Shown here one piece after another: positions 15,881 to 28,774 of a stretch of DNA of 64,000 nucleotides. The DNA is from Treponemataceae bacterium (GTDB lineage: Bacteria; Spirochaetota; Spirochaetia; Treponematales; Rectinemataceae). Location of the stretch: contig CAXXGJ010000017.1 of NCBI GenBank assembly GCA_963677895.2, positions 96,001-160,000 on the forward strand, in the 5' to 3' direction. Position numbers and translations under genes: made by a program. The notes beneath the pieces were generated by a model. That model made no database searches and was not told where the DNA came from. It saw nothing but the letters and a program-made list of their open reading frames with translations. Position 1 is the first letter of the stretch. Each line of letters opens with the position of its first letter.

Positions 15881-16867
15881 ATGAAAAAGAGCATCTTCCC
15901 GTTAGTCTTTGCGCTTATATCGGTACTGTTGCTTTCGGGCTGTCCGGCGATTCTGGATTTTGTAGAAGACCTTATCCCCACGACGACGACCACTACGACG
16001 ACCACTACAACGACAACCACCACAACCCCGCCAACAACAACGACCACGACTACTGTACCGACAACGACTACAACGACGACGACGACCACCACCACTACTA
16101 CTACCACCACGACAGTCCCGCCGCCGACGACGACGAGCACGACCACGACAACCACGATAATGTCCTTTGAGGACACGCTCTCCGCCGCTAACGCGGCATC
16201 AGGGTATGACGGCAGGCTTCCCGTAATTTCCGGCGGGATACAACATTACGTAATCCAGAACAAGATTGATAATCCCTTGACCACCAATCAGGCAGTCGCC
16301 TATTACGCCGATACTGGTAATTTCTCTATTACGCAGCAGACTGGTCCCTTAACAACCTTACCGGTGTCTTTTCCGTCGATATTCATCGGCAACAATAACG
16401 GACATGCTACGTCTGGCAGCGCCCTTCCAATGCTTACCAGCGCTATTTCAAGCATTCCAACAGCCTGGACCTGGTCGAACGCGAATGCCCCATTAGCTGA
16501 TTTCGCCGCCACCTACGAACTATGGTTTACGACAGCGTTTAATAACAGCAGCATCCCGGGCCCGGAATATTCGCTGAATATTTGGCTATACAAGCCGGCC
16601 GGCCATTCGCCAGGCGGGTCTCAGTACGGTTTAGTCATGATAAATGGCCTGCAATGGAATATCTGGATCGATCCTTTTTCTATCACCTACGTGGCGCCCG
16701 CAGCAGCGCGAAACGTGAGTTTCGATCTTGTCTCCTTCATCAACGACGCAAAAGGGCGGGGCATGATTTTAAATTCTGACTATCTCCACGACGTCATCGC
16801 GGGCTTCAGGATATGGTCAGGCGGCGCGGGACTGGCGAGCGGCAATTTCAGCGCATTGGTGCGCTAG
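15881..16867 (+). CDS. Lipoprotein with poly-Thr stalk and glycoside hydrolase family 12-like domain lacking the catalytic Glu residues
   Basis: Lipobox LLSG-C20; about 60-residue Thr/Pro tract; GH12 landmarks FPSIF, IPTAWTW, ATYELWF, LNIWL, SFDLVSF and AGFRIWSGGAGL. Confidence 0.75.
   Translation: MKKSIFPLVFALISVLLLSGCPAILDFVEDLIPTTTTTTTTTTTTTTTTPPTTTTTTTVPTTTTTTTTTTTTTTTTTTVPPPTTTSTTTTTTIMSFEDTLSAANAASGYDGRLPVISGGIQHYVIQNKIDNPLTTNQAVAYYADTGNFSITQQTGPLTTLPVSFPSIFIGNNNGHATSGSALPMLTSAISSIPTAWTWSNANAPLADFAATYELWFTTAFNNSSIPGPEYSLNIWLYKPAGHSPGGSQYGLVMINGLQWNIWIDPFSITYVAPAAARNVSFDLVSFINDAKGRGMILNSDYLHDVIAGFRIWSGGAGLASGNFSALVR
15978..16157 (+). repeat. Degenerate ACN trinucleotide tract (poly-Thr linker)
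   Basis: Long run of ACG/ACC/ACT/ACA codons interrupted by Pro, Val and Ser codons. Confidence 0.9.
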
Positions 16868-18033
16868 GCAACGCTCTTCACTTTCCTGTTAAGCCCGACA
16901 GCGAGTATCAGCGCGGCGGCGAGCGAAAGAGAAGCGCCCAACGCGAAGGGAACCACGGGTCCGAATATATTCCACAAAAATCCAGCGATCACGCTCGCGG
17001 GCAGAAGCGCGATTCCGACGATCGTGGAATGAAGACCGAGCACGGTGCCCTTCAGTTCCTTGGGCGCGATCTCGGCTATGAAGGCGCGTTCGACACCGGC
17101 CGTCATGGCGGTGAAAACTCCATACAAGGCGAAAGCCGCGACGATAACCGCTTTACCGGTGGCCCAGGCAAAGCTGGCATACACGATCGCGAACGTCACA
17201 TACCCGGCGACCAGCACCCATTTTCTCCCGACGCGATCGGATATCTTGCCAAGCGGTATGGAGAGAAGGGACGAGACGATGTTGTACAGGAAATACAGCA
17301 GCACCACCGTGGCCGAATCGAATCCCATGTTTTTAGCCCGAAGAAGAAGGAAAGTGTTCGACGAATTGCCGAGTGTGAATATGAATACGACAACCAGATA
17401 GAGTTTCAGGCGCGAATCGAGATTCTTGAGACTGCCGAAGACGTTGAGCGGCGCCTTTGACTCGCTTGGTTTGTGGGTCTCCTTGATGAAGATGAACATG
17501 AAGAGGGCAGCGAGCGTCGGGATTGCCGAAAGCAGGAAGATCCGCTTGTACGCGAATTCGCCGTTACCGGTCTTCATGATGAAAAACGCGAGGAGAATGC
17601 CCGCCGCCGACCCTGCCATGTCGAGGGCTTTATGAAGCCCAAACGAGTGCCCCAGCTTTTTCGAATCGCTGCTCTCGCTGACGAGCACGTCGCGAGGCGC
17701 CGTCCTGATGCCTTTTCCGAAGCGATCGATTACCCGCGCGGCGAGCACGCCCACCCAGGAACTGGCGAAAATGAGGGCCAGCTTATATATAAGTCCCGTG
17801 GAATAGCCGAAGAAGGCGATGGGCTTTTTCTTCCGGTACTTATCCGTGGCATAGCCGCTGAATACTTTAAGGAGGCTCGCGAGGCTTTCGGCGATTCCCT
17901 CTATCACGCCGACGAGAGCTGGCGTGGCGCCGAATACCGTCGTCAGATACATGGGAATGAGGGGATAGACCATCTCGGTGCTCAGATCGGCGAAAAAACT
18001 GACAAGCCCAATCAAAATTACGTTGTTCATCAT
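16864..18033 (-). CDS. MFS transporter
   Basis: Start MMNNVILIGLVSFF overlaps the upstream stop (TAATG); GYATDKYRKK and GKISDRVGRK MFS loops; DRFGKGIRTAPRD. Confidence 0.9.
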   Translation of the reverse strand: MMNNVILIGLVSFFADLSTEMVYPLIPMYLTTVFGATPALVGVIEGIAESLASLLKVFSGYATDKYRKKKPIAFFGYSTGLIYKLALIFASSWVGVLAARVIDRFGKGIRTAPRDVLVSESSDSKKLGHSFGLHKALDMAGSAAGILLAFFIMKTGNGEFAYKRIFLLSAIPTLAALFMFIFIKETHKPSESKAPLNVFGSLKNLDSRLKLYLVVVFIFTLGNSSNTFLLLRAKNMGFDSATVVLLYFLYNIVSSLLSIPLGKISDRVGRKWVLVAGYVTFAIVYASFAWATGKAVIVAAFALYGVFTAMTAGVERAFIAEIAPKELKGTVLGLHSTIVGIALLPASVIAGFLWNIFGPVVPFALGASLSLAAALILAVGLNRKVKSVA

Positions 18034-19670
18034 TAGCCCAACCTTTCGGGTACAGTATAGACGATAGGCGATACAGCGCTGATCCTTCCGACGAGGGTCA
18101 GCTTCTTTTCGACCGCGAGAGAAAACGCGGCCGTGGTGGGAATGCTTCGCGAAACCACCAGGGGAATGCCCGCTGCGACAGCCTTGGCCGCCATGTCCGC
18201 GGCGATGCGGCCGGAACTGATGAGGCAGCTTCGCGAAAAATCCACTTTTTCGCGAAGCCCGCGTCCTATGGCCTTGTCGACGGCGTTGTGTCTGCCAACG
18301 TCCTCGAAGGTGAATACTAGTCCATTTTCGGGGACGAGAGCGGCGCAGTGCATACCGCCCGTCGTCTTGTACAGCTTGGCCTGGTCGAACATCTCCCGCG
18401 CCCAATCGCGCAGCGATGCCATGGCGAAGGTCCGTGACGGAGAAAGACGGGCGAGCCTGTCGCCATGAAAAATCGAAGCCGGACTCGCGCCGCAGGCCGA
18501 GGGGACGACGGCAAAGCCGGACTCGTGGGCGATATCATGGACGCATTTGATGTGCACGCGCGAATTGTCGGGACAAACCCACAGACTCAGGACTTCGTCC
18601 ATGGACGCGATGAGCCCGCCGCTGAAAAGGTGGCCCAAGGCGAGAACCTCCAGATCGAAGGGACTGCACATAAGCGTAACGATGTCCTTTCCATTCACCT
18701 CGAGCGTGACGGCACTTTCCGGAGCCAGGAGGCGGTTCCTCGGATCGGGAGGAACATCGTTTTCCCGCGCCATAGCGTCCTCGGATTGACGCGTCTTCTC
18801 GCCATTATGTCTTGAAACTATAGTATTCATGGCCAGGCCGGCGAGGAGAAGGAGCGTACCCAGGAGTTTTTTCCATTCAAGGCTTCCTCCCAGGGCAAAT
18901 TCGATGAGTATGCCGGCGAAAGCCTGGCCCGAAAACACGAGCAGCGTAGCGGAAAAAGCCCTTATCCGGGGGAAGATGAGGTTCATGGAGGTGACGACCA
19001 CCACGCCCATGCAGCCTCCCCCGAGCGCGAGAAAGGGACCCGCGGCCGCGACAGACCGCAGCATGTCAGCGACATCGGGCCTGACCAGGGCTACGATGAG
19101 CGATGTCGTGACGAGACCGACGACATAATTGGCGCGCGTGCTTCGCAGGACGCCCTTCTTTCGGCCCAGCTCGGAGTTCAACGCGAAGGAGAGCGCGGGG
19201 AAAGCGCCGGCCGCGAGGGCCGCGGCCATGGCGGAAACATCGGCGCGCCAATGGCCGCCCGACATCACGGCCACGCCAGCCACCGCCAGGAGAAGACTTG
19301 GCGCGCTTCGGAGGCTCAAGGGGTATTTCTTCCTGCCCAGGAGCCCTGTGGCGTCGATGAGGACCGAGAACAATGTCTGGCCGAGAAGCGCGAGCGATAC
19401 GGTCAGCGAGGCGCCGAGTATGCCGAAAGCGTAGTTGTTGGAAAAAACCGTTCCGACGCCTATAAATCCGCCGAGGTAGTAATAAAACGGCAGCCTGCCC
19501 GGTTGGCGCGCTTCCCGTTTCAGCAACAGCGCGACCGATACAGCGACGAGTCCCGCCAGATGAATGAAGAGCACGGCGGCAAGGCTGCCGGCGATCGCGG
19601 AAAAACGGCTGTTCAGGCCGTTCATCAACGTTATGAGAGCGCCGACGAGAGGCGCTAACGCGCTGTACAT
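18033..19670 (-). CDS. fdhD: In-frame fusion of a DMT/YdcZ-like transporter (N-terminal) and FdhD sulfurtransferase (C-terminal)
   Basis: About 290 aa with roughly 10 TM segments, then TLMCSP...LALGHLFSGG, SACG, TGGMHCAAL, EDVGRHNAVDK and SSGR. Possible internal start at 18773. Confidence 0.8.
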   Translation of the reverse strand: MYSALAPLVGALITLMNGLNSRFSAIAGSLAAVLFIHLAGLVAVSVALLLKREARQPGRLPFYYYLGGFIGVGTVFSNNYAFGILGASLTVSLALLGQTLFSVLIDATGLLGRKKYPLSLRSAPSLLLAVAGVAVMSGGHWRADVSAMAAALAAGAFPALSFALNSELGRKKGVLRSTRANYVVGLVTTSLIVALVRPDVADMLRSVAAAGPFLALGGGCMGVVVVTSMNLIFPRIRAFSATLLVFSGQAFAGILIEFALGGSLEWKKLLGTLLLLAGLAMNTIVSRHNGEKTRQSEDAMARENDVPPDPRNRLLAPESAVTLEVNGKDIVTLMCSPFDLEVLALGHLFSGGLIASMDEVLSLWVCPDNSRVHIKCVHDIAHESGFAVVPSACGASPASIFHGDRLARLSPSRTFAMASLRDWAREMFDQAKLYKTTGGMHCAALVPENGLVFTFEDVGRHNAVDKAIGRGLREKVDFSRSCLISSGRIAADMAAKAVAAGIPLVVSRSIPTTAAFSLAVEKKLTLVGRISAVSPIVYTVPERLG

Positions 19671-19704: not shown

Positions 19705-21012
19705 TCAGCGTTCGCGGATGAGGAGGTCCTCGTATGTTTCGCGGCGCACGGAAAGGCGATGCGAACCGTCCCTGGTCATGACGACGGCGGGACGGGGAAT
19801 GCGATTGTAGTTAGAGGCCATGGAGTGGTTGTATGCGCCCGTGGAGAAAACGGCGAGGATGTCGCCCGGTTCTGGATCGGGCAGATCGATGTCGCGTATG
19901 AGGATATCCCCCGTTTCGCAGCACTTGCCCACCACCGTCACCGTGGTACAGCTCGCCCCAACCCGATCCGCCTTATTGGCGCAGAGAGCATGGTATTTAG
20001 CCTCGTAGAGAGCCGGGCGGATGTTGTCGGCCATGCCCCCGTCGACGCCAACGTAGGTGCGTATGCCGGGTATCGTCTTGACGGAACGGAGGGTATACAA
20101 CGTGATGCCCGCTTCGCCGATGATCCAGCGGCCCGGTTCGATCGTCACCCTAGGCATGGGGATCCCCGTTTCCTCGGCGGCGCCGCGCACCAGTTCCATC
20201 ATGGGATCGATGAAGTAGCCGAGGCTCAGCTCGGGATCGCCAGGGAGATAGCGGATGCCGAAGCCTCCGCCGAGGTTGAGCTCGGAGGTCGCATAACCAT
20301 AGCCGGTCTTTACGTCGGCCATGAGTTTCAGCGCTATCCGCAGCGCCGCGAGGTGGGAAAAGTTGTCGTGTAGCTGGGATCCTATATGGAAATGAAATCC
20401 CCTGAAATCGATGTGCGGCGCGTCCAGCACGGCGCGCATATAGAGGTCGCGCAACGACGGGTCGAGAGGAATCCCGAATTTGGAATCCAGGCTCCCGGTG
20501 GAAATGAAGCGGTGCGTATGGCTGTCGACGCCCGGCGTGATCCTGTAGAGCACCCGGATTTTTTTGCCGTAGAGCTCCCCCAGCCTTTCGATTTCTTCGA
20601 TTTCGAAGAGGTTGTCGGATACTATGCGCCCGACATTGGAGCGAATGGCGTAATCGAGTTCGTCGGCCGCCTTGGCGTTGCCGTGAAAAATTATGGTCTC
20701 CGGGTCTATGCCGGCCTTGAGCGCCGCGTAGAGTTCGCCGCCGGAGACGACGTCGAGCCCTAAGCCTTCGTCGGCGACGATCCTGCACATGTCGAGGGTC
20801 TGGAAGGCCTTGCTCGCGTACACCGCCGAGGTATTGGGATACTTTTCCAGAAAAGCCGATCTGATGAGGCCGCAGCGCTCCCTCACCATGGATTCGGAAA
20901 CGACATAGAGGGGAGTACCGTAATGAGCGGCCAGTTCCGTGGCGTCGACGCCATCGAAATAAAGCTTGCTTCCGCAGATTTCCGCGCGGGAATTGAATCC
21001 TGATATGCTCAT
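19705..21012 (-). CDS. lysA: Diaminopimelate decarboxylase
   Basis: YGTPLYV, YASKA (PLP Lys), HGNAK, SKFG, HFHIGSQ, EPGR, GKCCETGD and GAYNHSMASNYN. Confidence 0.93.
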   Translation of the reverse strand: MSISGFNSRAEICGSKLYFDGVDATELAAHYGTPLYVVSESMVRERCGLIRSAFLEKYPNTSAVYASKAFQTLDMCRIVADEGLGLDVVSGGELYAALKAGIDPETIIFHGNAKAADELDYAIRSNVGRIVSDNLFEIEEIERLGELYGKKIRVLYRITPGVDSHTHRFISTGSLDSKFGIPLDPSLRDLYMRAVLDAPHIDFRGFHFHIGSQLHDNFSHLAALRIALKLMADVKTGYGYATSELNLGGGFGIRYLPGDPELSLGYFIDPMMELVRGAAEETGIPMPRVTIEPGRWIIGEAGITLYTLRSVKTIPGIRTYVGVDGGMADNIRPALYEAKYHALCANKADRVGASCTTVTVVGKCCETGDILIRDIDLPDPEPGDILAVFSTGAYNHSMASNYNRIPRPAVVMTRDGSHRLSVRRETYEDLLIRER

Positions 21013-21137
21013 AATGGCATTGTACACGATCCTCAGGCGAAGATTAAGAGTGCCGAAATGTTTTCAATATGGAAAATCCGGCGGCCAGCGGGTATACTTC
21101 GCCCAATATCGCCGACGGCGACGCTTTTATCTAGGGG

Positions 21138-21860
21138 ATGACCATGAAACCACGCATCGGACTCACCACCTTCATCGATCCGCAGGCGCGGGCGAATTAT
21201 GTTTCGCTCAGCGAACACTATACCCGTTCGGTCAGGGACTCGGGCGGCATTCCCTTTCCCATTCCGCTCGTCGAGGACCCGAGTATGGCGGAAGATTATG
21301 TCTCGAACATCAATGGCCTCCTTCTGACGGGAGGCAAGGATATCGATCCCGTTTATTATGGCCAGGATCCCCTTGTCGGGATCGGTCCTTTCGGCGCGGG
21401 ACGCGACGCGTGGGAGATGGCGCTGTTCGCCGCGGCGGCCAGGAAAGCCTTGCCTATTTTCGGAATCTGCAGAGGATGTCAGCTCATCAACGTGGCGATG
21501 GGAGGAACGCTTTTTCAGGATCTGAAAACGCAACGGCCGGGCACGAATGCCCATAGTCCGGAGGATTTCCCCGTGGACAGGCTTTACCATTCCGTCGAAC
21601 TCAAGGAAGGATCGATGCTTCATTGCACCTTCGGAAAAACTTCCCTGCGGGTGAACAGCTTTCATCATCAGGCCGTCAGGGATCTGGCGCCGGGACTGAA
21701 AGCCTCGGCTTTTGCCGCCGACGGCGTCCTGGAAGGTTTCGAGGCGGCGGACGCTTCGCGCTTTCTCGTAGCAGTGCAGTTCCATCCGGAAAGCCTCACG
21801 CTGAGATTTCCGGAATTCCTCGCTCTTTTCAGGGCTTTCGTGGAAGCTGCAGGAGGCTGA
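21138..21860 (+). CDS. Peptidase C26 gamma-glutamyl hydrolase (PuuD-like class I glutamine amidotransferase)
   Basis: GLLLTGGKDIDP, GICRGCQ (Cys nucleophile), VNSFHHQA and VQFHPE. Confidence 0.9.
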   Translation: MTMKPRIGLTTFIDPQARANYVSLSEHYTRSVRDSGGIPFPIPLVEDPSMAEDYVSNINGLLLTGGKDIDPVYYGQDPLVGIGPFGAGRDAWEMALFAAAARKALPIFGICRGCQLINVAMGGTLFQDLKTQRPGTNAHSPEDFPVDRLYHSVELKEGSMLHCTFGKTSLRVNSFHHQAVRDLAPGLKASAFAADGVLEGFEAADASRFLVAVQFHPESLTLRFPEFLALFRAFVEAAGG

Positions 21861-21946
21861 GGACGGGCTCCGGAGGGTTCTCTGGAAGTTCCAGGAGGCT
21901 GAGGAAGGCCTCCGGAGAGTTCTCTGGAAGTTCCCGGAGGCTGAGG
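21841..21946. repeat. 42-bp tandem repeat, about 2.5 copies, beginning in the last codons of the C26 gene
   Basis: Unit TGGAAG(C/T)T(G/C)C(A/C)GGAGGCTGAGG...CTCCGGAG(G/A)GTTCTC, starting at 21841, 21883 and 21925. Confidence 0.9.
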
Positions 21947-22003
21947 GCCGGCAAGAGGGCGCCTAGAGGCGCAATTTCCGGAAAAAGGGCGTCCATACAA
22001 TTT

Positions 22004-23083
22004 TCAACCGGCGAAGGGCGACTCCAGCAGTTCAAGGCTGCGCGCATCGGTGTTCATCCTGTAACGGAGACCGAGCGGCAGGGTCAGGGTCGGGGCGCAG
22101 TGCCCCGCCTCGATGCCCGCGAGAACGGGCTTTCCGCAGGGCAGGATCAGGTCGCGAAGGATTTCCTCGATCGTCAGCGAACGTTTGCCCTCGGCGGGGG
22201 CGCAGCGGGTCCAGGCGCCGATCGCGACGCCCGCGCAGTCTTCGAATTTACCCGCCAGGCGCAGCTGGTTCAGCATCCTGTCGATACGGTAGGGCGCCTC
22301 GTCGACATCCTCGATGAATATGATTTTTCCCCGCGCGTCGAGCTCCCAGGGCGTACCGATGGTGGCCGCGATGAGGGAAAGATTGCCTCCCGTGAGTTCG
22401 CCTTCGGCGATTCCGCCCGAAAGGGTATGAAAAGGACGGCCAGAGGGGTTTGTGAGGCGGAGGATCGGGGATGCGGTGGCGGTGGCGGTGGCGGTGGCGG
22501 CAACGGAGGCCGGGGCGGCTGCCGCTGGGGTGGCAATCGAGGCCAGGCCGGCGGTTTCTGGAAGCCCAAAAAGCGCTGCTTCCAGGGAAGCCCTCGAAGC
22601 CGGATCGAACTCGGGGACCATGTCGGAGGAAGGCATGGGGCCATGGAAGGTGACAAGACCAGCCAATTGGCGAAACGCGGTGTGGAGGGCGGTTATGTCG
22701 CTGTAGCCCAGAAAAACCTTGGGATGGGCGGCGATGATCGAGTAGTCGATGAGATCGAGAATGCGCGGCGTTCCATAGCCGCCTTTGAGGCAGATCACGG
22801 CGCTGGTACCCGGATCGAGAAAGGCGAGTTCCAGCTCGCGAGCCCGGGTCGCGTCTTCTCCGGCGAGGTAGCCATAGGCGTCGGCGCAATGGGGCGAAGC
22901 CTTAACCTTGAAGCCGAGGTCTGAAAGGGCCCGTATGGAGGCTTCGACCCGGTCGGGGCCGCTGGCTGAGCCCGAGGGGGCTATGAGGGAAACTGTGTCG
23001 CCTCGGAGCAGCCGGCGCGGCTTGAGGCGCCGCGGAGCGGGCACGGGCCGGCAGGAAGCCGCGCCGGCGGCAGCGGCCTTCAC
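22004..23083 (-). CDS. ldcA: LD-carboxypeptidase (peptidase S66)
   Basis: IAPSG, KGGYG, GYSDITAL (Ser), HGPM, GGNL, IEDVDE (Glu) and AGH (His). GTG start overlaps the upstream stop (GTGA). Confidence 0.9.
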   Translation of the reverse strand: MKAAAAGAASCRPVPAPRRLKPRRLLRGDTVSLIAPSGSASGPDRVEASIRALSDLGFKVKASPHCADAYGYLAGEDATRARELELAFLDPGTSAVICLKGGYGTPRILDLIDYSIIAAHPKVFLGYSDITALHTAFRQLAGLVTFHGPMPSSDMVPEFDPASRASLEAALFGLPETAGLASIATPAAAAPASVAATATATATASPILRLTNPSGRPFHTLSGGIAEGELTGGNLSLIAATIGTPWELDARGKIIFIEDVDEAPYRIDRMLNQLRLAGKFEDCAGVAIGAWTRCAPAEGKRSLTIEEILRDLILPCGKPVLAGIEAGHCAPTLTLPLGLRYRMNTDARSLELLESPFAG

Positions 23084-24267
23084 GAACGCTTTCCGAGCAG
23101 CCTGGAGACCAGGCCCGCCTGCATGGCGACGCCGATAGGCAGGCAGTCTTCGTCTATATCGAAGGCATTGGAATGCAGAGCCGCCGTAATCCCCTTCCGG
23201 GGGTTGCCGCAACCGAGATGGTAGAAAGAGCCTGGCTTTTCCTGGACGAAGAAGGAAAAATCCTCGACGCCCATGCTCGCCTTATCGCGCCAGATTATAG
23301 AATCAGGACCCAGCAGATCCTTCGCCTCCTCGGCGATGAGATCCACCACCCAATCGTGGTTGATGAGCGCCGCATAGCCCGCGACGATTTCGACTTCACC
23401 GGATCCCCCGAAGGCGACAGGCAGGTTGGCGACGATGGCCCTCACCCTCTCCGCGATTTCCGCTCTTACCTGAGGATTCGTCGTTCTTATGGTGCCCGTC
23501 ATCCTCACCTCGTCGGCGATGATGTTGTTGCGGGTGCCTCCCTGGATGGTTCCGAGCGTAAGCACGGCTTCCTGGAGGGGAGAGACGTAGCGGGAAACCA
23601 CCGAATGGAGCGCGTCCACTACCTTGGCCGCTATCATGATGGCGTCGATGCCCGTGCTGGGATAGGCGGCATGAGCTCCCTTGCCCCGTATGGTGACGCC
23701 GAGAAAATCGGAGGAGCCATTGAGGGCCCCATGCTTCAGCTCGACCTTTCCCGTCGGCACATCCGGCATGACATGGAGCCCTATGACAAAATCGACATGG
23801 GGATTCTCGAGACAGCCGTCGGCGATCATCTTCGCCGCCCCGCCCGTCGTCTCTTCTGCGGGCTGGAAAAGAAACTTGACCGATCCCTCCAGCTTGTTCC
23901 GATGCTCCATCCAGTATTTCGCCGTGCCCAAAGCGATCGTCATATGGGCGTCGTGGCCGCAAGCGTGCATGTAACCCTTGTGGAGGGACGCATAGACGCG
24001 ATCGGCGGATTCATTCACCGGCAAGGCATCCATGTCCGCCCTCACGCCGACCACTTTGCCGGATTTTTTTCCCTCGACGAGCGCCACGATGGAGGTTCGC
24101 CTTTTTTCGTAGGGGACACCAAGTTCTTCCAGGATGCCGCAGACCGCTTCCTGCGTCTCGAACTCGGCGTCGCCGGCTTCAGGTATCCGGTGGAGAGTCC
24201 TACGCGTCTGGACGAGCCAGTCCTTCATCGTTTTCATTGCTTCCAGCAATTCCTTACCTGTCGACAT
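23080..24267 (-). CDS. M20 family amidohydrolase/metallopeptidase
   Basis: LHRIPE, RADMDALP, MHACGHDAH, FQPAEE, GAHAAYP, MGVEDF and LHS; TAAGGAG RBS. Confidence 0.9.
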   Translation of the reverse strand: MSTGKELLEAMKTMKDWLVQTRRTLHRIPEAGDAEFETQEAVCGILEELGVPYEKRRTSIVALVEGKKSGKVVGVRADMDALPVNESADRVYASLHKGYMHACGHDAHMTIALGTAKYWMEHRNKLEGSVKFLFQPAEETTGGAAKMIADGCLENPHVDFVIGLHVMPDVPTGKVELKHGALNGSSDFLGVTIRGKGAHAAYPSTGIDAIMIAAKVVDALHSVVSRYVSPLQEAVLTLGTIQGGTRNNIIADEVRMTGTIRTTNPQVRAEIAERVRAIVANLPVAFGGSGEVEIVAGYAALINHDWVVDLIAEEAKDLLGPDSIIWRDKASMGVEDFSFFVQEKPGSFYHLGCGNPRKGITAALHSNAFDIDEDCLPIGVAMQAGLVSRLLGKRS

Positions 24268-24307
24268 TCCAGACTCCTTAAGTTTTACCGGCGCGCGGAC
24301 CAGCGGA

Positions 24308-25504
24308 CTAGAACCGCCGCAGCGTCGATCCCGAGAGACGATTATCCAGAGCGACAACCTTCCCGCTTCGCGTATACAAGCGCGGGACCCTTCTTCCGAT
24401 ACCGCACAGCAGCTCGTTCCTGTTGGTGGATCCCCATTCGGAAGCTTCGTTCAGGCTTATGGCCCCTCCTCCCAGAAGGATCACTTCATCGCCTTCGGCA
24501 ACGCCATCGACAGCTCCCACGTCCACCATAGTCTGGTCCATGCAGACCAGGCCAACTACCATCGCCCTCTTCCCCCTGATGAAGACCTGAGCCTTGTTGC
24601 CGAAGCGCCGGGGATAGCCGTCGGCGTACCCGACTGGAAGCGTGGCCACAAGCGTGCCTCCCTTCGGAGCCTGCCATGAATCGTCGTAGGAAACCATTTC
24701 GCCCTCTTCCAGCCGCCTGATTCTCGCGATCCGCGTGACGAAAGTTCCCGCCGGGGGGAATGGGTACGCATCGTATTCAGCCCCCATTCTCGAAGGCCTG
24801 ACGCCGAAAAACGCCGCCCCTACCCTGACCATGTCGAGCCTGAATTCGGGGTACCGGACGGCGCCTATGCTATCGCAGACATGGCGCTGCCCGGTTGGAA
24901 TGCCCTTCGCGGCACAGCCGGCCAAAATTTCATTATAGGCCGCGAATTGAGCCATATCCGATTCCCGATCGCGAAGCGCGAGATGAGTAAAAATCCCACG
25001 CAGATCCAGTCCCGGCATTCCCGCGATAGTCCCGATTATTCCGACGGTATCCTCGTAAGGCTTCATGCCCAGCCGGTTCATCCCTGTATCCAGCTTGATA
25101 TGGACGGGAAGAACCGCGCCTGCCTTGACCGCCGCGTCGGAAAAAGCCCCGGCGTTCTTCGCGTCAAACAAGGTGGGCATAATTCGATGCTCGACGGCAA
25201 GGCCGGCAAATTCCTCTGGTGTATGCCCCATGACGAGGAGATCGGCATCGGGAAAGGCCATCCGCAGCTCGAGGGCTTCGGAAATCGTGGCGACGGCGAG
25301 CAGGTCGGCGCCGGCCGCCAGCAGCGTCCCGCCGATCATCACGGCGCCGTGCCCGTAGGCGTCTGCCTTGATGACGGCGGCGATCTTCACCGTATCTCCT
25401 ACGATAGTCTTCATATCCCGGAAATTGGATTCCACGACATCGAGATCGATGGAATAATAGGTCTGTCGGCCCAGACTTCTCAGGATATCGCCGCCGGGCT
25501 TCAT
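24308..25504 (-). CDS. alr: Alanine racemase-family PLP racemase, divergent paralogue
   Basis: IKADAYGHG, HIKLDTGMNRLG, VSYD (catalytic Tyr), GYADG and CMDQ, but atypical HVCDSIG and GLVCMDQ. Confidence 0.85.
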   Translation of the reverse strand: MKPGGDILRSLGRQTYYSIDLDVVESNFRDMKTIVGDTVKIAAVIKADAYGHGAVMIGGTLLAAGADLLAVATISEALELRMAFPDADLLVMGHTPEEFAGLAVEHRIMPTLFDAKNAGAFSDAAVKAGAVLPVHIKLDTGMNRLGMKPYEDTVGIIGTIAGMPGLDLRGIFTHLALRDRESDMAQFAAYNEILAGCAAKGIPTGQRHVCDSIGAVRYPEFRLDMVRVGAAFFGVRPSRMGAEYDAYPFPPAGTFVTRIARIRRLEEGEMVSYDDSWQAPKGGTLVATLPVGYADGYPRRFGNKAQVFIRGKRAMVVGLVCMDQTMVDVGAVDGVAEGDEVILLGGGAISLNEASEWGSTNRNELLCGIGRRVPRLYTRSGKVVALDNRLSGSTLRRF

Positions 25505-26442
25505 TATTTCCCGCCCGCCAGACGGGGATTCCCGCCCCCGAGGGCGCCAAAATTCTTCAGGCTCAGTATCATCGCCTCCGAGAACCGCCCTTCGTAAATA
25601 CAGAGCGCGGGACCCGTCATCAGCACCGATGGGCGGGAAAGATCGAGCGAAAGAATCCCGCCGGGCATATGCACCCGGACGAGCCCCTCGACCAATCCCA
25701 GCTTTTTGGCGACGCTCGCCGCGGCGCAGGAGGAAGAGCCGCTCGCCAGCGTATAGCCCGCCCCCCTCTCCCATATCTCTATCCGCAGGTTGTGCCTGTC
25801 CATCACTGTCGCGAACTGCACATTGGTCCGCTCGGGAAAGAGCCGATGATTCTCGACGAGGGGACCCAGGCGTTTCGCCAGCTCAGGCGTCGGGTTTTCG
25901 GCAAAAATGACGCAGTGTGGATTGCCCATGGAGACGAAGGTCGCGGAAACGCTTTCGGTTCCCAGATCCAGCTTCCCCTGGACGAATTCCGGAAAATCGG
26001 TCGCGAGTCCGGCGGCGGATGCCGAAAAAGAAGGCTCGCCCATATCCACCTTTATGCGAGGCGGATCGAGGCTTTCGACCTTAGCCAGAACCCTGCCGCC
26101 TTTCGTGCCCACGGGAAATTCCTCGCCGTTCACGTAGCCTTGTTCCGCGAGGAATAGGCAGAAAATCCTCAGCCCATTGCCGCTCTTTTCGGCTTCGGAA
26201 CCATCCGGATTGAAGATCCTGACCCATGGAGTCGCGGCGAGGCCGAGGAGGCCGGCGGGCATGCCCGCGAGATCGTTTTCGGAGGCGAGAGGTCCCAGCA
26301 GTATGCCGTCGGAACCGGCGCCCATGTTCCTGTCGCAGATCGCCCGCACGGCGTCGGCCACGGGCACGAAGGGAAATTCCCTTGGGTCGATGACGATATA
26401 ATCGTTGCCCAGGGCATGGTATTTCCTGAACTCAGCCGACAT
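25504..26442 (-). CDS. dapF: Diaminopimelate epimerase family protein, Ser/Ser active-site variant
   Basis: KYHALGNDY, GSDG, NPDGSEAEKSGNG, MGNPHCV, FPERTNV and WERGAGYTLASGSS. Confidence 0.9.
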   Translation of the reverse strand: MSAEFRKYHALGNDYIVIDPREFPFVPVADAVRAICDRNMGAGSDGILLGPLASENDLAGMPAGLLGLAATPWVRIFNPDGSEAEKSGNGLRIFCLFLAEQGYVNGEEFPVGTKGGRVLAKVESLDPPRIKVDMGEPSFSASAAGLATDFPEFVQGKLDLGTESVSATFVSMGNPHCVIFAENPTPELAKRLGPLVENHRLFPERTNVQFATVMDRHNLRIEIWERGAGYTLASGSSSCAAASVAKKLGLVEGLVRVHMPGGILSLDLSRPSVLMTGPALCIYEGRFSEAMILSLKNFGALGGGNPRLAGGK

Positions 26443-27553
26443 CGGCTCCTCCCTTCGCGATCCTGGGCACGCGCTTCGAGATGCCGCAGGTCACTTCATA
26501 ATCGATGGTGCCCATAAGGCCGGCGAGTTCTCCGGCGGGCAATTCGGGAAGACCGAAAAGAGTGACCTCATCGTCAAGCATGGCTTCGGGGATATCCGTT
26601 ATGTCTATCATCACCTGATCCATGCAGATTCGACCCGCGATGGGTGCCTTCCTTCCCCTTACGATCACGCTGCCTTTATTCGAGAGGAGACGGGAATAGC
26701 CGTCGGCGTAACCGATCTGCAAAAGAGCGATGCGCGAATCCCGCCGCGCGGTGAAGAGCCTGCCGTAGCTGACGCTTTCTCCTTTTTTCAGCAGGCGGAT
26801 ATTGGCTATGGACGCGCAGAGCTGCATGACTGGGAGGAATCCCTCAGGCGGATTCGGATTCGCGTCGGGGGAAAGGCCGTAGAAGAGTATGCCGGGACGA
26901 ACCATATCGAATCGCGCTTCGGGGATATGGAGAAGAGCGGCGCTGTTGGAAATATGCCGTATGGGGGGGCAGACGCCGGCCGCCTTCATGCTTTCGACAG
27001 CGCGCCGGAATTCGGCGAGCTGACGATAGGTGAAGGAAGTGTCGGGATTGTCGGCGTCCGCGAAATGGGAGTAGACGCCTTCAATATATAATCCTTCCAT
27101 GGACGCGAGCGAACGGGAAAAGGATTCCGCGTCATCGGGGGAAATGCCCTGGCGATGCATGCCCGTATCGATCTTGACGTGGATTTTGGCCGGATGATTC
27201 AGGCGGCGCGCGGACTTGGCGAGCGCGAGCGCGAGTTCCATAGTGTACACGGTCTGCGTAATATTCTGCGATACTACAATATCGGCGTTTGAGGGATCGG
27301 TGGTGCCGAGAACGAGGAGGGGCGAGGCGATGCCGGCCGAGCGAAGCTCCAGGGCTTCTTCCAGAAGGGCTACCGCGAGATAATCGATTCCCTCGCGGTC
27401 GAGGGTGCGCGATACGGCGATGGCGTCATGGCCGTAAGCGTCGGCCTTGACGACGGCGCAGACTTTTGCCTGGCCGGCAAGGATTCGAATTTTACGCAGG
27501 TTGTTGACGAGATTGTCGGTGTGAATATAAGCGGCGGCTTTTCTGTTCATCAT
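26432..27553 (-). CDS. alr: Alanine racemase
   Basis: AVVKADAYGH, DTGMHRQG, YSHFA, HISNSAA, MVRPGI, VSYG, GYADG and GRICMDQ. Confidence 0.92.
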   Translation of the reverse strand: MMNRKAAAYIHTDNLVNNLRKIRILAGQAKVCAVVKADAYGHDAIAVSRTLDREGIDYLAVALLEEALELRSAGIASPLLVLGTTDPSNADIVVSQNITQTVYTMELALALAKSARRLNHPAKIHVKIDTGMHRQGISPDDAESFSRSLASMEGLYIEGVYSHFADADNPDTSFTYRQLAEFRRAVESMKAAGVCPPIRHISNSAALLHIPEARFDMVRPGILFYGLSPDANPNPPEGFLPVMQLCASIANIRLLKKGESVSYGRLFTARRDSRIALLQIGYADGYSRLLSNKGSVIVRGRKAPIAGRICMDQVMIDITDIPEAMLDDEVTLFGLPELPAGELAGLMGTIDYEVTCGISKRVPRIAKGGADVG

Positions 27554-27559
27554 ATAGTA

Positions 27560-28774
27560 TCAGCCTTTCTCCTGATCTTGGCGTTTCGGTTGCGTTGTTT
27601 GATTTGCTCGGCTCGATGAGCTCGGTCCGCTGCAGGCGGTCAGCGTCTTGTCCCAGATGAAAAGCTCGGCTTTCGCCCCCACCTCTATGCTTCCCCCCTG
27701 CCCGCCGGCCGTGAAGCCGAGGGCGGCGCCGGGCGTGCGACTCATGGAGGCAAGCGCAGGGGCGAGGGAAAGACCAGTGGCCTCCATGAAGGATTTCACT
27801 ATCTGCATGCCTAATTTATTGGATCCGATAAGCGTGCCCGTTTCGCTGTAGCGCACACCGTTCAGGCTGGAGGAAACGGACTTCCCGAAATAGCGGTATT
27901 CGCCGTACTCCAGGCCGGCGGATACCACGGCGTCGCTTGTGAGGATGAGGCGTTCCGAGGGGATGCATCGCGAGGCTGCCTTCATGCTGCTGTCGTTCAC
28001 GTGGATACCGTCGGCGTTGAGTTCGGTCCACGCGGGGATGCCCGCGAGGGCTATGTTGACGAGGCCGCCGCCGCCACTTCGGTGGTCCAGCCCGCTCATC
28101 GCGTTGAAGAGATGGGTCACGGAAAAGGGCGGCGGCGGCAAGGCGACTCCGGCGCTCGCGCCCGAGTGCCCCAGCGAAACAAGGACACCATTCTCTCTCA
28201 GTATCGGATAGAGCGACTCGATGCCCGGCAATTCCGGCGCGAGCGCCATTATCCTGAGCCTGCCCCTGGCCGTCTCGATGATTTTCCTGCACAAGTCAGC
28301 GTCCGGAGCCTCTATCTGCGGCAGGTTTATCCCTCCGCGATGCTTCGGGTCGATGAAGGGACCTTCGATATATATTCCCGGAATAACCTCGGGGGGCAAC
28401 CGCGAAGCCTCGATGGCATCCACGAGCCTTCCCACGGCCCCCTCATCCCAGAGGATGGTGGGAACAAAACACCCCACTCCCCTCTTTTCCAGTTTCCTCG
28501 CGACCTCTAGGATATCCTCGGCGCCCCCGACGCTTTCAAAGCCTATGCCGAAGGCTCCATGGATATGCATTTCCACAAGCCGCGGCGCTACGAAAGAGCC
28601 GCCGCAATCGACGACGGCCAAATCGCGGTCTTCAGGGTTGGATAACAAGTATTCTTCAAGGCTTTCTTCGCCGACATGACGGATCCTTCCCTCCCTGACG
28701 ACGAGGATTCCCCCTTCGAGAAGCCGGTCGGGCAGGACGAATGTGCCTCCCGAGAGGATTTGATTGTCAGCCAT
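27560..28774 (-). CDS. nagA: N-acetylglucosamine-6-phosphate deacetylase-like amidohydrolase
   Basis: MHIHG, IEGPF, LAPE, LGHS, THLFNAM, ADGIHV and LTSDA. Confidence 0.85.
   Translation of the reverse strand: MADNQILSGGTFVLPDRLLEGGILVVREGRIRHVGEESLEEYLLSNPEDRDLAVVDCGGSFVAPRLVEMHIHGAFGIGFESVGGAEDILEVARKLEKRGVGCFVPTILWDEGAVGRLVDAIEASRLPPEVIPGIYIEGPFIDPKHRGGINLPQIEAPDADLCRKIIETARGRLRIMALAPELPGIESLYPILRENGVLVSLGHSGASAGVALPPPPFSVTHLFNAMSGLDHRSGGGGLVNIALAGIPAWTELNADGIHVNDSSMKAASRCIPSERLILTSDAVVSAGLEYGEYRYFGKSVSSSLNGVRYSETGTLIGSNKLGMQIVKSFMEATGLSLAPALASMSRTPGAALGFTAGGQGGSIEVGAKAELFIWDKTLTACSGPSSSSRANQTTQPKRQDQEKG

Follow-up and report, generated by a model that had tools for sequence, protein, structure and literature searches.

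We identified a cluster of eight genes in a 64,000-nt stretch of spirochaete DNA (the window, G000:C17:96001-160000, from a 3.5-Mb genome, G000, that is 92.8% complete) that probably salvages peptidoglycan stem peptides, sending their diaminopimelate (DAP) to lysine, and also provides the shared tail of de novo lysine synthesis. Close homologues of the cluster proteins carry the source name Rectinemataceae. Protein families, motifs, gene order and co-occurrence were read directly, and it is from these that we infer what each enzyme acts on and that the peptides come from other organisms. The original prediction of a system that dismantles stem peptides and converts DAP to lysine is supported by the synteny of the cluster, in relatives, with genes for the M55 peptidase DppA, an M19 peptidase and an oligopeptide (Opp) transporter, by cluster-bearing relatives that lack de novo DAP genes, and by a MurE without the DNPR motif.

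Profile searches of the open reading frames (ORFs) of the window recovered all eight genes at the positions and in the families first proposed, and thereby bore out the gene run itself. The minus-strand run nagA-alr1-dapF-alr2-M20-S66, with gaps of 6, -11, -1, 40 and -4 nt after starts were refined from the sequence, comprises, besides nagA, alr1, for a canonical alanine racemase with the TIDYE motif (26432..27553; 378 bits, cut-off 168), dapF, for a Ser/Ser-type DAP epimerase (25504..26442; TIGR00652, 216 bits, cut-off 115), alr2, for a pyridoxal phosphate-dependent racemase of a distinct subfamily (24308..25504; TIGR00492, 300 bits, cut-off 168), a gene for an M20 amidohydrolase of the YxeP/HipO type (23080..24267; TIGR01891, 351 bits, cut-off 154), and a gene for an LdcA/YkfA-like S66 LD-carboxypeptidase (22004..23083; PF02016 and PF17676), the GTG start of which overlaps the M20 stop. 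Tail to tail with S66 lies the plus-strand gene for C26, a class-I glutamine-amidotransferase-like gamma-glutamyl hydrolase (21138..21860; PF07722), which is divergent from the minus-strand lysA, for meso-DAP decarboxylase (19705..21027, with a later ATG possible at 21012; TIGR01048, 431 bits, cut-off 298).

The clustering proved to be conserved across the family. Co-occurrence was counted in 69 family genomes, which are kin and not independent, so that the counts are descriptive: dapB, dapF and lysA were over cut-off in 61, 44 and 46 genomes, and orthologues of M20, C26 and S66 were found in 49, 37 and 25. Each of the 22 relative loci with a close dapF (at least 44% identity) carries at least one other cluster gene, as opposed to none of the seven with a distant dapF, which indicates clustering beyond chance. 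The fullest cluster, in G061, comprises lysA, M19, C26, S66, DppA, M20, alr2, dapF and Opp; G032 and G066 have the same set plus alr1, split over two contigs each. DppA (structural match 1HI9), a putative D-aminopeptidase by its family names, lies inside the cluster in 12 family genomes among the cluster loci retrieved, the search not being systematic, and M19 and an Opp operon adjoin the cluster in G061, G066, G014, G063 and G081. Several relatives have the importer and DppA linked to the cluster. In G000, DppA, Opp and M19 are no longer part of it, and their orthologues lie unlinked on other contigs (DppA 61%, OppA 68%, OppB 75%, M19 45%).

The relation of the cluster to lysine synthesis differs between relatives, and several of the patterns speak for salvage. 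In G032 (96% complete) and G066 (90%), both fragmented assemblies, the cluster is present and no dapA, dapB or dapD was over cut-off; G013, a 99%-complete congener of the two, is likewise without these genes. In G014, G019, G063 and G081, lysA stands with peptidases and no dapF was over cut-off, as expected if meso-DAP arrives ready-made. An over-cut-off lysA was found in 23 of the 25 S66-positive and 31 of the 37 C26-positive family genomes. Directly upstream of alr1 in G032, an ORF read by eye as a PAS/sigma-54 activator (L060:6231-8402) is a possible cluster regulator.

The absence of dapA, dapB, dapD and mur genes noted in the original prediction holds for the window, matches being found on other contigs only, and fails for the genome. 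An asd-lysC-dapB-dapA-dapD operon is located at C18:78030-83271, with dapA, dapB and dapD over an NCBIfam cut-off and the aspartate kinase over its subfamily cut-off, and the DAP auxotrophy implied for G000 is therefore rejected. No dapF other than that of the window was found in G000, and the window lysA is the only one over cut-off in a profile search, so these two genes must finish de novo lysine synthesis, if that pathway works. The proposal that M20, DapF and LysA form a biosynthetic tail stands to this extent and falls as an exclusive alternative. The dapL match in G000 stayed below cut-off, and none of the 69 family genomes yielded ddh. A further asd copy (G000:C21:106694-107749), which neighbours a second aspartate kinase gene, shifts frame near its 3' end and may reflect an assembly error or be a pseudogene; the intact asd is at C18:78030-79277.

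The MurE sequences speak for a wall of a different type. The motif is EDPR in 28 of 30 loci, two being partial, rather than the DNPR described for DAP-adding MurE in the available passages of one study (PMC3829189). An ornithine aminotransferase gene adjoins murE in G000 (C38:449944-454111), and the same was seen within 1.5 kb in 17 of the 29 other murE loci. The congener G013 (99% complete), which has the same EDPR-type MurE, yielded no dapA, dapB, dapD, dapF, over-cut-off lysA or cluster. The wall of the organism is thus likely, as judged from sequence, to be free of DAP, in which case the DAP would most likely come from other bacteria.

The enzymes that release DAP from stem peptides in characterized systems were not recovered. 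A cytoplasmic YkfC was not found in G000 (at 92.8% completeness), where the two NlpC/P60 proteins have apparent N-terminal hydrophobic leaders and lie in unrelated loci, and no convincing MpaA was found, the one M14 match being weak (E 1.9e-9) and in a separate Opp operon. This distant M14 peptidase (G000:C6:404018-405367), encoded within an Opp-type operon, is possibly MpaA-like. The Ala-Glu epimerase (YkfB/YcjG) was over the NF041118 cut-off in none of the 69 genomes; matches at E 1e-45 occurred in two, neither with S66 or C26, and the best enolase-family match in G000 reached 148 bits against 500. With orthologues of all three not found, the DAP-releasing enzyme is probably non-orthologous, namely M20 or C26. 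Judging from the sequences, M20 is the leading, if tentative, candidate; C26 is a somewhat less likely one, and a joint action of both or another enzyme is about as likely as C26.

For M20, the nearest solved structures are YxeP, an indole-3-acetic acid-amino acid hydrolase and 4EWT, and a homologue search returned generic names only. The protein is 44-50% identical to the M20 enzymes of alr2-M20-DppA operons outside the family, compared with 33-36% to two G000 paralogues, and a tree with only two outgroups and long branches shows kinship with these outside enzymes, not function. M20 is a candidate N-acyl-DAP amidohydrolase or dipeptidase, and as a candidate for DAP release it appears at least as good as for the dipeptidase role. 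In C26, the only member of its family found in G000, C111, H216 and E218 are invariant in all 17 aligned copies. The closest solved structures are Lin1909, SpuA and PuuD (28-37% identity; TM score 0.86-0.93), and an AlphaFold model (pLDDT 95) confirms the SpuA/PuuD fold, stereospecificity not being readable from the model. PuuD and SpuA act on gamma-L-glutamyl substrates and are L-specific. The window enzyme shares their fold and Cys-His-Glu triad but lies outside a polyamine operon and would need to accept D-Glu or a pre-racemized substrate. C26 is a plausible replacement for MpaA/YkfC, but the solved C26 relatives of known function that were found are gamma-glutamyl hydrolases with gamma-L-glutamyl substrates.

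S66 has the GYSD, EDVDE and AGH motifs, presumably holding the Ser-Glu-His triad positions, and an Ala/Thr-rich insert. Together with the PF02016/PF17676 matches and the lack of a clear hydrophobic leader, the motifs place it among cytoplasmic LD-carboxypeptidases, although its NF008424 score (161 bits) is below the cut-off of 378. Alr2 contains HVCDS and TNRNE motifs and, in the alignment, Asn at the Tyr354 gate, where Alr1 has Tyr, and so departs from strict alanine racemases; the two are the only Alr proteins found in G000. Change of this gate to Asn widens VanT and mutant Alr to serine, according to the available part of one report (PMC4542195). In alignment with E. coli-type DapF, the window DapF carries Ser in place of each catalytic Cys (EKSGNG and LASGSS), and 27 of 28 family copies show both Ser residues; it is not of the canonical Cys/Cys type and by sequence matches the Ser/Ser class. 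A DapF fold with Ser in place of both catalytic Cys residues has already been published (Lamer et al. 2025, as cited in a passage of PMC13728532). Our protein shares this replacement but differs in being the product of the only dapF found in its genome and in belonging to a putative wall-peptide cluster.

In the proposed cytoplasmic pathway, an Opp transporter, adjacent to the cluster in several relatives and relocated in G000, would import tri- and tetrapeptides. S66 would take the terminal D-Ala off the tetrapeptide, the role assigned to YkfA/LdcA in the available text of PMC3305447, and DppA, relocated in G000, would split N-terminal D-Ala links. M20, C26 or both would then stand in for YkfC/MpaA and hydrolyse the gamma-D-Glu-DAP amide. 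The product of S66 would be an N-acyl-DAP with a free carboxyl, chemically near N-succinyl-LL-DAP, and Echvi_1427 represents an M20 amidohydrolase type able to hydrolyse N-succinyl-DAP (GapMind 2026, bioRxiv 2024.10.14.618325, in part). If a single M20 acted on both N-acyl-DAPs, this would account for the observation that no pair persists as well as M20-lysA, whether de novo genes are present or not, and M20 perhaps doubles as the desuccinylase of de novo lysine synthesis. If C26 makes the cut instead, it would need to accept D-Glu or to act after Alr2, which might racemize the free gamma-D-glutamyl terminus and thereby open the bond to an L-specific C26. M19 (relocated in G000) or M20 would split L-Ala-D-Glu, with no need for an Ala-Glu epimerase; the M19 enzyme Sco3058 reportedly has L-D dipeptidase activity. 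Alr1, Alr2 and MurI would turn D-residues into L, the Ser/Ser DapF would epimerize LL-DAP, whether newly made or taken from LL-DAP walls, to meso-DAP, and LysA would convert meso-DAP to lysine.

The same peptidases are associated outside the family. A scan with an alr2 alignment returned 80 metagenome loci, ten of which bear the alr2 signature; M20, DppA, S66, C26 or Opp is adjacent in eight of these, compared with one of the 70 other loci, and the remaining two signature loci are contigs of 1.5 and 3 kb. Three of the eight resemble the same spirochaete family, and six show no lysA or dapF in the DNA examined, including all of the other five. Among these five are Opp-C26-alr2-DppA-peptidase-M20 (L264) and S66-alr2-M20-DppA (L266), and a named Tissierella contig has C26-alr2-peptidase-DppA. 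A peptide-catabolic module of alr2, M20, DppA, S66 and C26 therefore occurs independently of dap genes, and these spirochaetes have it joined to DapF and LysA. In named genomes, 22 of 78 C26 loci lie near M19, DppA, S66, S58, alr or lysA/dapF. Fusions of C26 with M19, of 585-615 amino acids, were found in seven Bacteroidota loci with checked ORF length (L136, L157, L160, L164, L192, L201 and L203); they occur as tandem duplicates in Parabacteroides and adjoin S66 in Butyricimonas. A metagenome-assembled genome named Spirochaetaceae encodes a natural alr1-dapF fusion of 664 amino acids in the same cluster (L129:12990-14984), and at this locus a second, Cys-type dapF stands beside M19.

Compared with known systems, the cluster resembles the Bacillus ykf and E. 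coli mpaA catabolic pathways, but two defining enzymes, the YkfC/MpaA peptidase and the Ala-Glu epimerase, were not found. In B. subtilis, ykfABCD is preceded by dppA-dppBCDE. The B. subtilis system likewise clusters S66, an oligopeptide ABC transporter and the M55 peptidase DppA for cytoplasmic stem-peptide breakdown, the roles of ykfABCD being described in the available text of PMC3305447. In the spirochaete set, C26, M20, M19 and two racemases stand where YkfC and the YkfB epimerase would be expected, and dapF and lysA are linked to it directly. The E. coli MpaA-YcjG-MppA-PepD system shares the inferred tripeptide substrate and the release of meso-DAP and amino acids; MpaA, however, is an M14 enzyme, of which G000 has only the weak match, YcjG is absent, and it is here that lysA and dapF are clustered. 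YcjG, MppA and PepD are further parts of murein tripeptide catabolism in E. coli. The role of MpaA in that catabolism is given in part of PMC9928106. On the biosynthetic side, the amidohydrolase-alr2 (DapF2) pair at the tail of the Staphylococcus dap operon similarly has an Alr-fold gene and an amidohydrolase gene side by side for the synthesis of lysine, and Echvi_1427, an alternative DapE of Bacteroidota, is an M20 amidohydrolase acting on N-acyl-DAP, as far as the available text of their source goes; those genes accompany de novo genes, whereas ours accompany peptidases, also where dapA, dapB and dapD are missing. In the literature searched, which included few subscription journals, we found no published account of the cluster or of a C26 enzyme acting on gamma-D-Glu-DAP.

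A cultured relative, R. cohabitans HM, makes use of the biomass of dead bacteria and, when co-cultured, expresses transporters for oligopeptides (PMC6052044, in part). In supplement file 5 of that study, nagA, alr, dapF, amidohydrolase, C26 and lysA occupy consecutive loci, with tandem mass spectrometry counts of 35, 34, 67, 47, 18 and 92, respectively, compared with 5 for dapD, 6 for aspartokinase and 18 for asd (PMC6052044). We take this file, as far as the source goes, to be a pure-culture proteome from glucose plus yeast extract, and it shows that a relative expresses these genes, but not that walls induce them.

Several observations weigh against stem-peptide salvage. G000 has the upper de novo pathway, M20 amidohydrolases of this kind can replace DapE, and one Alr2 family is a DAP epimerase (GapMind 2026, bioRxiv 2024.10.14.618325, in part). 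The EDPR motif retains the DAP-binding Arg, and the T. maritima MurE, of the DDPR type, takes DAP in vitro (bioRxiv 2022.01.05.475093, available passages). In eight genomes, the cluster is reduced to nagA-alr1-dapF-M20-lysA and resembles a biosynthetic tail; the M20 orthologue is present in 44 of the 46 genomes with an over-cut-off lysA; S66 is missing from 44 of the 69 family genomes; and 56 of the 78 outside C26 loci showed no wall-related neighbour with the queries used (132 of 235 picked neighbours scanned). Expression of the R. cohabitans cluster on glucose and yeast extract needs no added walls, and the passages available from a peptidoglycan-fed enrichment study name no spirochaete (PMC7511781).

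Alternatively, the cluster could be only the tail of succinyl-DAP lysine synthesis, with a DapE-like M20, DapF and perhaps Alr2 as epimerase, and LysA, and with S66, C26 and nagA as unrelated neighbours. The C18 operon, in a genome with no dapL over cut-off and no ddh found, the M20-lysA association, the reduced alr1-dapF-M20-lysA operons, the precedents of Echvi_1427 and of S. aureus Alr2/DapF2 beside an amidohydrolase (GapMind 2026, in part), and the retention of alr2 in the dapF-less G019, G063, G064 and G081 all fit. M20 may or may not catalyse the DapE step: its score lies far below the DapE cut-offs, but M20-type DapE substitutes exist. We nevertheless regard this explanation as unlikely: the M20 orthologue is missing from 16 of the 61 dapB-positive genomes, while a second DapE/ArgE-like M20 (PRK13983), which in G000 lies at C18:18051-19334, is present in 67 of the 69; the cluster persists in G032 and G066, where dapA, dapB and dapD were not found; alr2-M20-DppA operons occur elsewhere without dap genes; and several relatives have DppA, M19 and Opp attached.

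Recycling of the organism's own wall peptides, whether of ornithine, lysine or DAP type, in the manner of LdcA/YkfABC is more doubtful still. G000 has S66, Alr, NagA, AnmK and MurQ, the usual parts of self-recycling (anmK and murQ, on the sugar side, and a murI candidate count in favour of stem-peptide salvage as well), orthologues were detected in the R. cohabitans proteome table, and the outside alr2-M20-DppA operons without lysA would fit. However, the tight link to lysA makes sense for DAP peptides only, MurE lacks the Asn of DNPR, including in G013 with no DAP synthesis genes, and many family members are without S66 and C26. Mpl was not among six Mur-ligase matches in G000, in a search that was not exhaustive, since MurC was likewise missing from the six. 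A further Mur-ligase-like ORF (G000:C38:588372-589730) was read by eye as CapB/PgsB-like, of poly-gamma-glutamate synthesis.

Least probable is the reading that the cluster serves D-amino-acid and gamma-glutamyl peptides at large (isopeptides, pieces of poly-gamma-glutamate or D-peptides), wall fragments being incidental: SpuA and PuuD as nearest characterized C26 enzymes, MccF-type members of the S66 family, the occurrence of S58 and M42 peptidases, of asparaginases and of amino-acid permeases among the outside C26 neighbours, and the CapB-like ORF agree with it, but the fixed link to dapF and lysA and the presence of S66 beside alr2, M20 and DppA in unrelated loci are left unexplained.

Lysine synthesis itself varies in the family. 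No dapF was over cut-off in 21 of the 61 dapB-positive genomes. Many of the de novo operons retrieved have, right behind dapD or separated from it by an aminotransferase gene, a divergent LysA-like gene that resembles TIGR03099 and reaches no cut-off. The loci concerned are L080:7048-8235 in G033, L081, L082, L083, L085, L086, L089, L090, L092 and L094, and this may be a DapF-independent lysine route, for instance by decarboxylation of LL-DAP or N-succinyl-LL-DAP. Operons that combine a second lysA type with dapL occur in G082 (L083:8682-11202), G008, G086 and G011, genomes in which no dapF was found; dapL is over the TIGR03542 cut-off in G082, and G082, G008 and G086 also have dapD.

The nagA-like ORF that heads the run, a gene whose putative product is a deacetylase of N-acetylglucosamine 6-phosphate (27560..28774, minus strand), falls short of the TIGR00221 cut-off (155 against 226 bits), with motifs present that we take to be the metal and catalytic ones. 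G000 has three more paralogues elsewhere, and the gene does not adjoin the cluster in G006, G004, G033, G061, G032 and G066; we therefore rejected it as a core member. The C26 stop is spanned by three 42-nt direct repeats (21841..21966) that extend into the C26/S66 gap. The 110-nt region between lysA and C26 (21028..21137) contains one 9/12 sigma70-like match (21070-21098, plus strand); overall, the scan was uninformative, with four promoter-like and nine terminator-like sites compared with 3.2 and 8.6 in shuffles. Elsewhere in the window, we noted a GH12 glycoside hydrolase (15881-16867), which has a leader like that of lipoproteins and a long linker rich in Thr, and a YdcZ-type exporter fused to FdhD in one ORF (18033-19670), of which only the first 49 residues were matched in G001, at the locus edge.

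Peptidoglycan makes up a large share of bacterial necromass. Its anaerobic fate is little known, according to the available passages of PMC7511781. We tentatively propose that these spirochaetes and other anaerobes have a third route for peptidoglycan peptides, with C26, M20 or both as a hitherto unrecognized gamma-D-Glu-DAP amidase that is not related to MpaA or YkfC and with M19 or Alr2 in place of the Ala-Glu epimerase, by which DAP-free spirochaetes would feed on walls of dead bacteria. If so, G032 and G066 would obtain lysine only by wall salvage or uptake. Such a route would explain what an Alr subfamily does, and likewise a C26 subfamily that is common but unannotated and includes the Bacteroidota C26-M19 fusions, and would show a single M20-DapF-LysA set serving both salvage and synthesis. 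With a defined gene set and a cultured necromass feeder, R. cohabitans HM, in the family, the fate of peptidoglycan becomes directly testable.

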